Shown: positions 10,096-45,030 of the stretch, piece by piece
Layout: each line of letters starts with the position of its first letter
Numbering within the stretch: the first letter of the stretch is position 1
Source of the DNA: Candidatus Melainabacteria bacterium 17Bon1m
Lineage (GTDB): Bacteria > Cyanobacteriota > Vampirovibrionia > Obscuribacterales > Obscuribacteraceae
NCBI GenBank assembly: GCA_032128875.1
Contig: JAVLKG010000001.1
Span: 1 to 64,000, forward strand
Direction of reading: 5' to 3'
DNA: 64,000 nucleotides
The notes under the pieces: model-generated
Database searches by the model: none
What the model was told of the DNA's origin: nothing
The model's input: only the letters and a program-made list of their open reading frames with translations
Translations under genes and position numbers: made by a program

Positions 10096-10680
10096 ATGAA
10101 GATAGACGCATTACTATTTGATGGTTTTGACGAGCTCGACTTCTTTGGTGTTTTTGAGACTTTGCGGATGGCAGGTTTGTCGGTTGAAACTCATTCTCTG
10201 TATCAGCAAGATGTCGTGACGGCGGCGTATGGTTCGAAGCTAGTGCCGGATGGTGTATATAGCTCTGACTTGAATTCCGACCTTTTAATCGTTCCGGGTG
10301 GAGGTTGGATTTCCAGGTCTCCTAAAGGTGCGTGGACGGAAATTCAGAAAGGCACGATACTGGACGTTGTGAAAGCTTGCCACGCAGCAGGAACAGTCAT
10401 CGCAACCGTCTGCACTGGTTCATTGGTGCTTGGAAAAGCTGGTCTTTTAAAAGATAGAAAAGCAACCACCAATCATGGCGCAGTGAAAGAGCTTGTTGAT
10501 TGCGGCGCAAAATACATTCCCTCGCGTGTTGTCGATGACGGCAACATCATCACCGCTGCTGGTATCACTGCAAGTCTTGATTTGGGACTTTGGCTTGTTG
10601 AGCGCTTTGTTTCTCAACAAGCAGCGCAAGCGGTTTCTGCTGGCTTAGAGTTTGAACGCAGAGGATTAGTCCACAGATGA
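10096..10680 (+). CDS. DJ-1/PfpI family protein
   Basis: FDGFDELD, LIVPGG, TVCTGS and ITAAGITASLD. Confidence 0.9.
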   Translation: MKIDALLFDGFDELDFFGVFETLRMAGLSVETHSLYQQDVVTAAYGSKLVPDGVYSSDLNSDLLIVPGGGWISRSPKGAWTEIQKGTILDVVKACHAAGTVIATVCTGSLVLGKAGLLKDRKATTNHGAVKELVDCGAKYIPSRVVDDGNIITAAGITASLDLGLWLVERFVSQQAAQAVSAGLEFERRGLVHR

Positions 10681-41842: not shown

Positions 41843-43579
41843 CTACCTCTGGGAGGCACCAGAAATCTTCTGTTTCAGAAGTTCGACTGCATTCTGGAGT
41901 TGAATGTCTTCATTCTTGCCGGAAGAGCGCTCGACCAGCTCGACGATGCCGTCTTTGAGCCTCTTTCCAATATTGATTCGCAGCGGAACCCCAATCAAAT
42001 CGTTGTCGGCAAACTTGAATCCCGGTCGCTCAGCGCGGTCGTCAAGCAAAACGTCGATTCCGCAAGACGTCAGGTCTTTATACAGCTTCTCGCCTGCGGC
42101 AAGAGCTTCTTCGTCTGCGCCATTGATGACGTTGACGATGACATCATAAGGAGCCAGGGCTTGCGACCAGACAATTCCCTTTTTGTCGTGGCTGCCTTCC
42201 ACTGCTGCTGCAAGCATGCGCTCCACGCCTATGCCATAACTTCCCATTACTATCGGTACTTTTTCGCCGGAAGAAACAAGCACGCTCGCGTCCATAGTTG
42301 TCGAATAGCGTGTACCAAGTTTGAAGATGTGACCGATCTCCAGCGATTTCTCGACTGCTAAAGTGCCACCACATTTGATGCAGGCATCGCCCGTCTTTAC
42401 GCTGCGAAAATCGCTCCAAGCTGTCGCCTCGATATCTCGCTCGATGTCCACGCCTTTGTAGTGGAAATCGTCATGGTTGGCTCCTGTCACCATATTAGAG
42501 CGACCTTTGAGAGCGCAATCAAGAAATATCTTTGTGATTTTGCCTTTCGCTGATGACGGTTTTACACCCACTCCTCCGAGCGAGCCGGCGTGTGCGCCCA
42601 TGGCGCTGAAAATCTCCTGCTCTTCTGCTGCGCGAACAGTTTGCGCACCCAAGAAATCCATGAGTTTGGTCGTGTTGAGCTCGTGGTCTCCACGCAGGAG
42701 CACAAGAACCAACTGATCGTCGGCAGAATAGACAAGTGTTTTGATCTGATTCTTCGCTGCTCCTATTTCTGCAAAGTTTGCTAGTTGCTCTACTGTTCTC
42801 AAACCCGGAGTCGGAAATTTTTCGAGTTGTGATTTCCCATTGCCAAAATCGTATTTGTCGAAAGCCGCAACTGCTTTCTCTACGTTCGCCGCGTAACCAC
42901 ACTCTTTGCACAGGACGACCATGTCTTCGCCTGCTTCGGTGAGCACCATAAACTCTGTCGAAGCACTTCCGCCCATTGCGCCAGAGCTTGCTTCGACTGC
43001 GACGAATTGCAAGCCGGCACGTCTGAATATCTTTTCGTATGCGGCTTTGTGCAGATCGAAACTTTTATCAAGTCCTGCGGAATCCACATCAAATGAATAC
43101 GAATCTTTCATTGTGAACTCACGCACTCTGAGCAAACCTGATTTCGGACGCAATTCATCGCGAAATTTTGTTTGAAATTGATACCAAATCTGCGGGAGTT
43201 GGCGGTAGGAGTTGAGAGCGTTTCGCGCGATTGAAGTAAAGACTTCTTCGTGCGTCACGCCTAGCACATGGTCAGAACCTTTGCGATCTTTGAGGCGAAA
43301 CATGATATCGCCCATAGTGCCCAGTCTTCCCGATTCTTCCCACAGTTCGGTCGGGTGCAGTGCCGGCAGAACAAACTCTTGTCCGCCAATGGCATTCATC
43401 TCTTCTCTTATGATATTTATGATCTTGAGACGTACCCTTTGGGCAAGCGGAAGCAGGCTATAGATGCCAGAACCCAGCGGGCGAATGTAACCTGCGCGCA
43501 TGAGTAATTTGTGGCTGGCTGTTTCAGCTGCAGCCGGATCTTCTTTCAACGTCGGAATGAAAAGCTGTGACCATCGCAT
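41843..43579 (-). CDS. proS: Proline--tRNA ligase (bacterial type, with INS editing domain)
   Basis: SHKLLMRAGYI, THEEV, KFRDELRP.GLLRVREF.MKDSYSF, GHIFKLG and MGSYGIGVER. Confidence 0.97.
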   Translation of the reverse strand: MRWSQLFIPTLKEDPAAAETASHKLLMRAGYIRPLGSGIYSLLPLAQRVRLKIINIIREEMNAIGGQEFVLPALHPTELWEESGRLGTMGDIMFRLKDRKGSDHVLGVTHEEVFTSIARNALNSYRQLPQIWYQFQTKFRDELRPKSGLLRVREFTMKDSYSFDVDSAGLDKSFDLHKAAYEKIFRRAGLQFVAVEASSGAMGGSASTEFMVLTEAGEDMVVLCKECGYAANVEKAVAAFDKYDFGNGKSQLEKFPTPGLRTVEQLANFAEIGAAKNQIKTLVYSADDQLVLVLLRGDHELNTTKLMDFLGAQTVRAAEEQEIFSAMGAHAGSLGGVGVKPSSAKGKITKIFLDCALKGRSNMVTGANHDDFHYKGVDIERDIEATAWSDFRSVKTGDACIKCGGTLAVEKSLEIGHIFKLGTRYSTTMDASVLVSSGEKVPIVMGSYGIGVERMLAAAVEGSHDKKGIVWSQALAPYDVIVNVINGADEEALAAGEKLYKDLTSCGIDVLLDDRAERPGFKFADNDLIGVPLRINIGKRLKDGIVELVERSSGKNEDIQLQNAVELLKQKISGASQR

Positions 43580-43625
43580 AATGTGTGACCTCTGCGCGAA
43601 TTAGTTATTGGAAAAATGGTTCTGC

Positions 43626-43653
43626 AAAAGCGACCTCGTATCTCACGAGATCG
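43626..43653 (-). terminator. Putative attenuator terminator in the proS leader
   Basis: Minus strand CGATCTCGT-GAGAT-ACGAGGTCG then CTTTT (9-bp stem with one G-U, short U tract). Confidence 0.6.
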
Positions 43654-43679
43654 AGCCTTGTCGCATCGGAACGCAAAGA

Positions 43680-43739
43680 CTAACCCGTGGTGCGAGGTCG
43701 CGGGCTAGGGGGTGGTCCGAATGTGACATGTGTATGCAT
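43680..43739 (-). CDS. Putative proline-rich leader peptide MHTHVTFGPPPSPRPRTTG
   Basis: ATG to TAG, 19 aa, codons CCA CCC CCT AGC CCG CGA CCT; ends 100 nt upstream of proS. Confidence 0.7.
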   Translation of the reverse strand: MHTHVTFGPPPSPRPRTTG

Positions 43740-43745
43740 ACGTTC

Positions 43746-43774
43746 AGTTTTGACGACAGAAAAACTTCTGTCAA
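43746..43774 (-). promoter_or_regulatory. Putative sigma70 promoter of the proS leader
   Basis: TTGACA (43774-43769), 17 nt, AAAACT (43751-43746); leader ATG begins 7 nt downstream. Confidence 0.55.
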
Positions 43775-43845
43775 TACTTTTTCGCCGTCTGCAAACGGTA
43801 GTTGTTACAAACCAATTCCGATTCCGAGCCGACCGCAAATCCAAA

Positions 43846-45030
43846 TTAGCGCATTGCATTGTCGAGATCGCGAATGGTGTAGTCGAGATCCTTTAGCTCG
43901 CGGTACGAGCTGTCGAGTTTGCTTTCGAGCGAACCAGCTGCGCTTGCAGCTTCGGAAGTGTTGTCGCGTTTCAATTCAGCGATACGCCGTTTTAAATCCT
44001 CGGCGTCTCGCGCTATAGCTTCATATTTAGCTTCTGCATTTGTCCTTTGAACTTTCAGCGTGTTGTATGTCTCCGGACTCAAGTTACTGGCTTCGGCCGA
44101 CTGCGAAGCGACGCTAGCCACTACCAGCGTCGTGGCTACAACTGCTATGTATGTTTGCAGCACTTCCTTAAAGCGCTTGCTGAATTTCGTTGGAGTCAGT
44201 CCGGCCAGACGCGCTTTCAGTGCATCGAGAATTGCGTGCCAGCCAGCCATCACCTCTGCCATCGCTTCTGTGGGCAGTTGGCTGTGAGTCAAAACGAGTG
44301 TTGTCTGATCGCCGACCGACGTGACTTGCATGGAGACTTGGGTGGCTTTGTCGCTCCCGGGCTCTCCCCATGAGTATGCCAAAGCACGCAGCGGATCAAT
44401 GAAGGTGACAGTGCCTTCGACGCTTTCGAACTTTCTGTCGCTTTCAACGTCGCTATTGTCGAATTGAAGTTTTACCTTGCCGCCGAACCGTTGGTCGATA
44501 CTTCCTTCGCCAAGCCATTCAGGCAGACATTCTGAGGACGTAAGATACTGCCAGACCTTCTCTATTGGAGCGGGTAGCACTCTCTCGAATCGGCATGTCG
44601 ACTCATCAATGATTTTACCGAGCTCGTTGATCATTGGAGCCGTCGACCCAATGAGCTTGGGCTCGTCTTTCGGCGGAGCAATAACAGTGACCTTGGTCGT
44701 TCCTGCTTCGTGTTTTGCTGTTGCCAAAAGTTGTTGTGCTTCCGCCAGCTCTGAGGCGTTTTTCGACAATAGTTTGTGTGCTTCTGCGATTTGCTGGGCG
44801 CTGTCGATCATGAGTTTGTGCGCGAACTCGCTCGTGTCCTTCATCTCTTGTATGTCTTTGCCCATCGTGACCATCGAGCCTTCGAGCGCGCTGACGCGTT
44901 CTAGCATATTGGCGTCGATTGCCGATTCTCCTTTCCCCTTTTTGTTTTCTATGTAAGCCATCAGCGGTTTTTTCATCACGATGGCAATCCAAAACAGCCA
45001 AAAGCCACCGACAGCAAGAATGCCTTCCAT
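43846..45030 (-). CDS. Membrane-anchored SRPBCC/AHSA1 domain protein with coiled coils
   Basis: RFERVLPAPIEKVWQYLT..LAYSW..AGWHAILDAL; N-terminal TM; second hydrophobic segment near the C-terminus. Confidence 0.8.
   Translation of the reverse strand: MEGILAVGGFWLFWIAIVMKKPLMAYIENKKGKGESAIDANMLERVSALEGSMVTMGKDIQEMKDTSEFAHKLMIDSAQQIAEAHKLLSKNASELAEAQQLLATAKHEAGTTKVTVIAPPKDEPKLIGSTAPMINELGKIIDESTCRFERVLPAPIEKVWQYLTSSECLPEWLGEGSIDQRFGGKVKLQFDNSDVESDRKFESVEGTVTFIDPLRALAYSWGEPGSDKATQVSMQVTSVGDQTTLVLTHSQLPTEAMAEVMAGWHAILDALKARLAGLTPTKFSKRFKEVLQTYIAVVATTLVVASVASQSAEASNLSPETYNTLKVQRTNAEAKYEAIARDAEDLKRRIAELKRDNTSEAASAAGSLESKLDSSYRELKDLDYTIRDLDNAMR

Follow-up and report, generated by a model that had tools for sequence, protein, structure and literature searches.

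A candidate proline-codon leader-peptide attenuator upstream of bacterial-type proS in Obscuribacteraceae

The leader region upstream of proS

The locus described here lies in a window of 64,000 nucleotides (nt) from Candidatus Melainabacteria bacterium 17Bon1m (contig JAVLKG010000001.1, positions 1 to 64,000), whose source genome has 7.55 Mb and a G+C content of 50%. The Melainabacteria and the Obscuribacteraceae to which it belongs are a lineage known solely from metagenomes. On the minus strand, a gap of 266 nt separates a gene for an SRPBCC/AHSA1-domain protein (ending at 43846) from proS (43579-41843), the gene for a bacterial-type proline--tRNA ligase. The gap holds a promoter-like sequence, a short open reading frame (ORF) rich in proline codons and a terminator-like hairpin. 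We propose that these elements form a ribosome-mediated (leader-peptide), four-region transcription attenuator that senses Pro-tRNA and controls proS. All evidence for this reading is in silico, and we put its probability at about 0.78. The features on which it depends are as follows.

43769-43774, minus strand: -35 box TTGACA, invariant in the alignment of 13 genomes of the genus
43746-43752, minus strand: -10 region, CAAAAC or AAAACT; relatives have xACAAT or xATAAT at the same position
43680-43739, minus strand: leader ORF of 19 codons plus TAG, MHTHVTFGPPPSPRPRTTG; the 13 genomes of the genus all retain its ATG, TAG and frame
43707-43715, minus strand: putative regulatory Pro codons 9-11 (CCA CCC CCU), with more Pro codons at 43701-43703 and 43695-43697
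43701-43708, minus strand: region 1, CUAGCCCG, 5' arm of the 1:2 hairpin predicted to hold region 2 in the free RNA
43693-43701, minus strand: outer antiterminator strand GCGACCUCG, with the terminator 3' arm CGAGGUCGC as its predicted partner
43680-43690, minus strand: region 2, CCACGGGUUAG, stop codon included; its predicted partner is region 1 or the terminator 5' arm
43631-43653, minus strand: terminator hairpin (regions 3 and 4), CGAUCUCGU GAGAU ACGAGGUCG, -11.9 kcal/mol, with 96.6% of the cells of the genus alignment paired
43623-43630, minus strand: U-rich tail CUUUUGCA with 4 U only, too short for the consensus scan
43589-43593, minus strand: Shine-Dalgarno (SD) sequence AGAGG of proS, conserved in the genus alignment
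41843-43579, minus strand: proS, encoding 578 amino acids (aa); NF006625 734.7 bits (cut-off 558), TIGR00409 613.3 bits

The promoter consists of TTGACA (43774-43769), a 17-nt spacer and AAAACT (43751-43746), followed by GAACGT and an ATG at 43739-43737, as the initial annotation of this DNA had read it. The -10 of relatives is GATAAT or CATAAT. Because the A of the ATG is the seventh base after the -10 hexamer, the ORF has no room for an SD sequence and its transcript is predicted to be leaderless. Transcription apparently begins at the AUG or one base before it, and the leader would be read as a leaderless mRNA. A perfect 7-bp inverted repeat, GACAGAA-N4-TTCTGTC (43755-43772), fills the spacer between the -35 and -10 of the leader promoter and was listed on the plus strand by a terminator scan. 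Among relatives, only the closest (L002, L003, L005, and L012) retain it in full or in part, and it could be an operator or be functionless.

The ORF reads atg cat aca cat gtc aca ttc gga cca ccc cct agc ccg cga cct cgc acc acg ggt tag, with the stop codon at 43682-43680, and ends 100 nt before proS. Proline takes five of the seven codons from 9 to 15 of MHTHVTFGPPPSPRPRTTG, and all four Pro codons are represented (CCA, CCC, CCU, CCG, and CCU), a composition that had been pointed out before and that we found to be correct. Across the 13 genomes of the genus, Pro9 and Pro11 are present in all and Pro10 in 12. The PPP codons 9-11 have undergone three synonymous changes and one replacement; codon 15 encodes proline in every genome and codon 13 in 10 of them. 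When one leader was counted per genus (12 genus representatives), proline was the commonest leader residue, with 43 of 271 codons (15.9%) against 4.8% in the long ORFs of the genome (binomial p 7e-12). CCN triplets occur 43 times in frame, compared with 20 and 24 times in the other two frames of these leaders. The leader is single-copy, as a search of the genome for further copies gave the self-match only.

Alternative folds of the leader RNA

The switch was modelled by folding each leader as far as the last base of the terminator hairpin while every base under the ribosome (A-site codon, -15 to +12) was kept unpaired, and the probability of the terminator helix was read at each ribosome position. 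In the window, this probability is 0.95 for the free RNA, 0.01 with G8 in the A site, and 0.00 with P9 or P10 in the A site. It returns to 0.80 at P11, is at least 0.93 at the later codons, and reaches 0.95 at the stop codon. The result is unchanged for ribosome masks of +7 to +13 nt. In the minimum-energy fold of the free RNA, region 1 (CUAGCCCG), which spans Pro11 and Pro13, pairs with region 2 as CGGGUUAG, and the terminator hairpin CGAUCUCGUGAGAUACGAGGUCG (43653-43631) is formed. A 26-nt spacer, able to form a small stem of its own, separates this hairpin from the leader stop. With the ribosome on Pro9 or Pro10, GCGACCUCG pairs with CGAGGUCGC and CACGGG pairs with CUCGUG in the same minimum-energy fold, and a hairpin at 43655-43680 becomes its central stem.

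These folds bear out the structures in the initial annotation, which had named the terminator-like stem with CUUUU, a hairpin at about 43655-43680, and both pairings of the 3' part of the ORF with the terminator arms; the two pairings coexist once Pro9 or Pro10 is masked. Its idea that a ribosome stalled at PPP frees the antiterminator agrees with the model for Pro9 and Pro10 in the A site (0.00) but not for Pro11 (0.80). In the 13-genome alignment, 91.3% of cells are paired in the free-RNA fold and 94.0% in the antiterminator fold, against 33-54% in slid controls. The region 1 helix of the free-RNA fold has 86.8% of cells paired, the helix of region 2 with the terminator 5' arm 96.6% (one pair is changed on both sides), and the GCGACCUCG/CGAGGUCGC helix 99.1%.

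In the proposed mechanism, a ribosome supplied with plentiful charged tRNA-Pro would pass the Pro codons to the UAG and cover region 2 (CACGGGUUAG) and most of GCGACCUCG. With these strands covered, the terminator hairpin would form and RNA polymerase would halt at CUUUU, short of proS. A shortage of Pro-tRNA would make the ribosome pause with Pro9 or Pro10 in the A site, where it would mask region 1 and leave GCGACCUCG and CACGGGUU free. The former would then pair with the terminator 3' arm and the latter with the 5' arm, and polymerase would proceed into proS. If no ribosome were present, region 1 would pair with region 2 and the terminator would form. We infer that termination does occur at the weak U tract and that proS responds to a shortage of proline.

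Ribosomes decode Pro codons slowly and require elongation factor P (EF-P) where these follow one another; the leader could therefore serve as a natural reporter of both tRNA-Pro charging and EF-P function. Limiting EF-P would slow formation of the Pro-Pro bond and give the same stall (Pro9 as P-site codon, Pro10 as A-site codon), which could induce proS in lineages with PP or PPP. A stronger form of this idea is that the leader ORF is mainly an EF-P/polyproline-stalling sensor, as proposed for leaders of the mgtL/mgtP type, so that proS would be induced by falling EF-P activity. We consider this unlikely. The genome does have an efp gene, and runs of proline occur as PPP in the window and in genus g26, as PPPPP in g4, and as PP in g6, g11, and g46. 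However, only separated Pro codons are found in g7, g10, g3, g33, g31, and 4 of 6 g13 leaders (APSPKP, APAP, PSAPDLP, and TPSP), and separated Pro codons are independent of EF-P. The window itself points both ways: the terminator probability falls to 0.00 when the ribosome stalls between Pro9 (P site) and Pro10 (A site), whereas the canonical stall on PPP, which places Pro11 in the A site, leaves it at 0.80. The regulated gene encodes the enzyme that charges tRNA with proline, which fits a charging sensor. In many genera the Pro codons never adjoin one another (APAP, PSP), so the signal that is conserved is most likely the supply of Pro-tRNA, with EF-P sensing at most an add-on in PP or PPP lineages. 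The initial annotation had proposed low Pro-tRNA or low EF-P activity as the signal; the first agrees with what is conserved across genera, and the second is possible but is no conserved feature, separated Pro codons being common. With these refinements, comparative and thermodynamic results support its interpretation.

The hairpin might instead affect translation or mRNA stability, with leader translation reshaping the 5' untranslated region and thereby exposing or hiding the ribosome-binding site of proS (translational attenuation), or transcription might be ended by Rho. The SD sequence AGAGG and the ATG of proS lie 45 nt beyond the terminator tail. The U tract CUUUUGC (43624-43630) is complementary to GCAGAGG (43589-43595), which holds the SD sequence; both are conserved in the genus, and they are paired in the full-length minimum-energy fold. 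This pairing would suit such control, as would the complementarity of CCUC-containing strands to GAGG and a U tract that in the whole genus is no longer than CUUUU. Such control nevertheless appears improbable. The U-tract/SD pairing cannot be switched, because it is available in both alternative folds; the hairpins lie 26-87 nt upstream of proS and off its SD sequence; and other genera have strong U tracts (UUUUUUG, UUUAUUUUUUU, and UUUUUUUUCG). The pairing of CUUUUGC with GCAGAGG may be an extra translational layer or may be incidental.

Distribution of the leader in the family

We surveyed 104 genomes of the family, found bacterial-type ProS in 59 of them (E <= 1e-60), and read all 59 upstream regions. 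A shared leader layout is present in 36 of the 59 loci and in 12 of the 17 genera that have the gene. It comprises TTGAC[AT] (in all 36 leader-bearing loci, this motif being a selection criterion of the detector), an ATG, and an ORF 12-30 codons long in which 2-5 Pro codons are clustered. Every one of the 36 also has a hairpin and U-rich tail 26-87 nt before proS. The check set beforehand, conservation of a Pro-codon upstream ORF (uORF) in relatives, gave the leader in 13 of 13 genomes of the genus plus 23 genomes of 11 further genera. With the same detector, none of 71 proS loci of other phyla and none of 6 loci of other families of the class had the layout. The leader is thus beyond chance, with 36 of 59 family loci against 0 of 77 control loci. 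Beyond the genus the leaders are unalignable, and it is the start position, the Pro cluster, and the architecture that persist; leader peptides of other genera include MTYAAHHRTAPPPPPSEQGACVACGTG, MLQTQNTAPSPKPFNPALRW.., MIRFDYAPSPPVPFS, MKSKRPQFPPPHF.., MMNASDRRPPATPKLLWG, and MFRNSTPPAPSNPTIPVG. The layout is absent from 22 of the 59 family loci, and one more (L031) is cut by the contig end. In genus g32 (14 genomes; L038-L054 and L059), proS has no leader and starts 30-60 nt after a TPR-like gene, which suggests that the attenuator was lost once proS joined another transcription unit.

A switch, defined as a terminator probability of <=0.2 at a Pro codon and >=0.7 at the stop codon, was predicted in silico for 19-23 of the 36 leaders. 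In eight genus representatives with a definable switch, proline accounts for 19 of the 48 codons that lie from -5 to 0 relative to the switch and for 10 of 128 codons elsewhere (Fisher p 2e-6). The duplexes between the 3' part of each uORF and its cognate terminator 5' arm have a mean energy of -15.4 kcal/mol, compared with -12.1 kcal/mol for non-cognate combinations; 1 of 20,000 permutations was as good, and the cognate uORF was the best partner of 12 for 6 terminators. This cognate strand matching is the cross-genus equivalent of compensatory change.

It is very unlikely that the region acts as an untranslated RNA element (a riboswitch, a T-box-like tRNA sensor, or an operator bound by prolyl-tRNA synthetase, ProRS) in which the ORF is incidental. 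Within the genus, nucleotide conservation exceeds what is needed to code for a 19-residue peptide: ACGGGTTAGTCTTTGCG and TTCGGACC show no change in any of the 13 genomes, one of which has a ProS with 69% identity. The double use of these bases in two folds, in addition to coding, explains such invariance. Across genera, it is the ORF, the start position, and the Pro cluster that are conserved and not the sequence, and the Pro codons change synonymously. No Rfam family matched at E up to 10 in 42500-45000 of the window, the T-box model (RF00230) included, and none matched at gathering score in 17 related loci.

Several results weigh against an attenuator. The -10 of the window matches 3 of 6 consensus positions, and its U tract has 4 U only (CUUUU throughout the genus, compared with 5-8 U in other genera). 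A consensus promoter and terminator scan of the window left both the leader promoter and the terminator unlisted, because the thresholds for the -10 and the U tract were not reached. The whole-leader fold is only moderately better than that of shuffled sequences (z -2.44, 4 of 200 shuffles as good), and for g1 the duplexes stand out weakly from shuffled ones (z -0.4 to -2.5). Covariation within the genus is insignificant, with one doubly changed pair per structure and shuffles equalling the score in 49-121 of 500 cases; the variation in the genus alignment is too low for significant covariation to appear. In the g13 alignment the helices shift register between sequences, and no covariation count was obtained. 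Of the covarying stems looked for in relatives, the kept pairing was found (91-94% against 33-54% in controls), but the covariation in the genus was too weak to prove them. When each leader was shuffled by nucleotide, the in-frame CCN count was significant for no single leader (P 0.09-0.65); the leaders are C-rich, a composition that may itself stem from their Pro codons. The distance from the start of the -35 box to the ATG (34 nt in 4 loci, 35 in 18, 36 in 13, and 37 in 1) falls in a range of 34-37 nt that was itself a selection criterion, and genomes from a single family do not count as independent samples. In three RNA-Seq libraries, all made from one sample, this stretch is represented by single contigs of 7-24 kb with flat depth, which show neither the start, the end, nor the level of the leader and do not prove transcription.

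In the equilibrium model, 13-17 of the 36 leaders are without a switch, which also counts on this side. These include all 3 of g3, both of g46, L032, L037, L044, L058, L061, and others. Most of them have a uORF segment, inside the ORF or at its end, that is complementary to the terminator 5' arm (-12.3 to -18.8 kcal/mol in g3, g46, L032, L037, L058, and L061; only -3.8 kcal/mol in L044), and the model may for that reason overlook a kinetic switch. A locus with no regulation at all, that is, an ordinary promoter and 5' untranslated region with a chance ORF and hairpin, would account for the modest fold z-score and for a promoter and terminator that scans do not list. We regard it as extremely improbable in view of the layout (36 of 59 family loci in 12 genera against 0 of 77 controls), the Pro enrichment, the Pro codons at the predicted switch, and the cognate pairing.

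The genome of the window (G000) encodes a second ProRS, of the archaeal/eukaryote type (493 aa; TIGR00408 595.6 bits, cut-off 437; contig C8:116443-117921, minus strand; L150:441-1922), and no evident Pro leader was seen when the sequence upstream of it was read by eye. The archaeal type is present in 68 and the bacterial type in 59 of the 104 family genomes, many of which have both. A link between the leader and the second enzyme was considered and dropped, as there is no association: the archaeal-type enzyme is found in 22 of 36 leader-bearing and 13 of 22 leader-less genomes. In those 22 leader-bearing genomes, the archaeal-type ProRS is without the editing insertion. An ancestral, family-wide attenuator might make the editing-competent, bacterial-type ProRS inducible, with a division of labour between the two ProRS types under a leaderless sensor of Pro codons, although we find this doubtful. 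If it were true, low Pro-tRNA or EF-P-limited Pro-Pro bonding would switch on a second ProRS when mischarging of tRNA-Pro is likeliest. The ProS encoded behind the leader shares 53-58% identity with ProS of Actinomycetota and Myxococcota (L078-L149) but only 42-46% with the bacterial-type ProS of the other families of its class (L020-L026). Being closer to those phyla than to its own class, proS was perhaps acquired horizontally by the family; we take this as a hint.

Other candidate leaders were also seen. A conserved "ORF" upstream of actinobacterial proS (..AEPECLTNCAVGAPPLEPG..), in about 10 metagenome-assembled genomes, looked like a second Pro leader and was rejected, since its DNA is the C-terminal end of the upstream gene. 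Under the pattern used, 11 other class I/II synthetase genes of the genome (PF00587, PF00133, and PF00579) had no short ORF with a promoter and ATG. On contig C14 of G000, the leucine ORF MQMNLATALLLSLGLDLGNLLLSEIT (10 Leu; ATG at 10507, plus strand; L151) has a promoter-like site TTGACA...CAGAAT 5-8 nt before its ATG. It is followed by a hairpin of -16.5 kcal/mol with UUUCUGUU and, 39 nt on, by a gene for a 582-aa isopropylmalate-synthase-like protein (leuA-like; NF002086 305.9 bits, below cut-off). We take it as a probable leaderless attenuator for leucine, built like the proS leader. On contig C12, the short ORF MFNRSTTTMVMPMPSGRGEHLPHVRMSS (TTT, three Met; ATG at 42963, minus strand; L152) stands behind TTGACT...CATAAT and is followed by a hairpin of -20.8 kcal/mol with UUUUUGUU and, 8 nt on, by a gene of the cystathionine gamma-synthase family. 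It is a possible Met/Thr-responsive leader.

Comparison with known attenuators

Textbooks describe leader-peptide attenuation of amino-acid operons and of a handful of synthetase genes (pheST, cysS, and trpS). In E. coli pheM-pheST, a leader ORF with Phe codons and alternative antiterminator and terminator hairpins controls an aminoacyl-tRNA synthetase gene. The proS leader is like it in having a short ORF with cognate codons and alternative hairpins before a synthetase gene. It is unlike pheM-pheST, which has Phe codons, is SD-led and belongs to Gammaproteobacteria, in its Pro codons, in the predicted position of the ORF at the 5' end of the transcript, and in its occurrence in Obscuribacteraceae (Melainabacteria).

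In Deinococcus deserti, predicted leaderless leader peptides precede tRNA-synthetase and amino-acid genes, and attenuation has been proposed (PMC4007540). The likeness is that transcription starts (in the proS leader, by prediction) at the AUG of a short ORF with many codons for the cognate amino acid, and that an aminoacyl-tRNA synthetase gene follows, for example cysS in that species. The phylum differs, and the main text of that report names cysS and trpEGD; proS, prolyl, and proline are absent from that main text, and its 14 leaders, which might include proS, are listed in supplementary table S9 (PMC4007540). The Rhodobacterales cysS attenuator motif uORFC-8-2, inferred by comparative genomics only, shares with the proS leader a conserved uORF with cognate codons (in tandem there), a terminator with a U run (putative in the proS leader), and a place upstream of a synthetase gene. 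In the part of that report available to us, it has Cys codons, belongs to Alphaproteobacteria and is not described as leaderless, whereas the proS leader has Pro codons and is predicted to be leaderless (PMC8632094). In mycobacteria, polycysteine leaderless short ORFs act as attenuators (bioRxiv 10.1101/834739). There, as we propose for proS, the speed of translation through the codons of one amino acid in a leaderless short ORF controls downstream genes; those ORFs use Cys, control cysteine-related operons, and are found in Actinobacteria.

Pro codons in leader ORFs are known from Salmonella mgtL (mgtA) and mgtP (mgtCBR), where they couple ribosome speed and EF-P to alternative stem-loops (PMC3641672, PMC6460261). 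The likeness is confined to the principle of a Pro-codon leader ORF, since mgtL and mgtP control Mg2+ transport and virulence genes, are SD-led, and respond to further signals, and the gene here is proS. In Firmicutes, proS itself is preceded by T-box leaders, prolyl-tRNA synthetase being listed with "T-box(15)" (PMC2836559, Table 1). Gene and logic are the same, with proS induced by uncharged tRNA-Pro through an antiterminator and terminator; in the T-box uncharged tRNA is sensed by direct RNA-RNA contact, whereas here sensing would go through the ribosome.

In the full-text literature searched, we found no leader-peptide attenuation with Pro codons described for proS, nor any in Melainabacteria or Obscuribacteraceae, in agreement with the initial annotation, which had known of no such control of proS. 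The leader offers a concrete regulatory element for Obscuribacteraceae and suggests that these bacteria translate leaderless mRNAs. Its occurrence in 12 genera with diverged sequences and the same layout provides a natural set of variants for dissecting the important features. Within the literature searched, the class of mechanism is a known one, and both the gene, proS, and the bacterial group are new for it.

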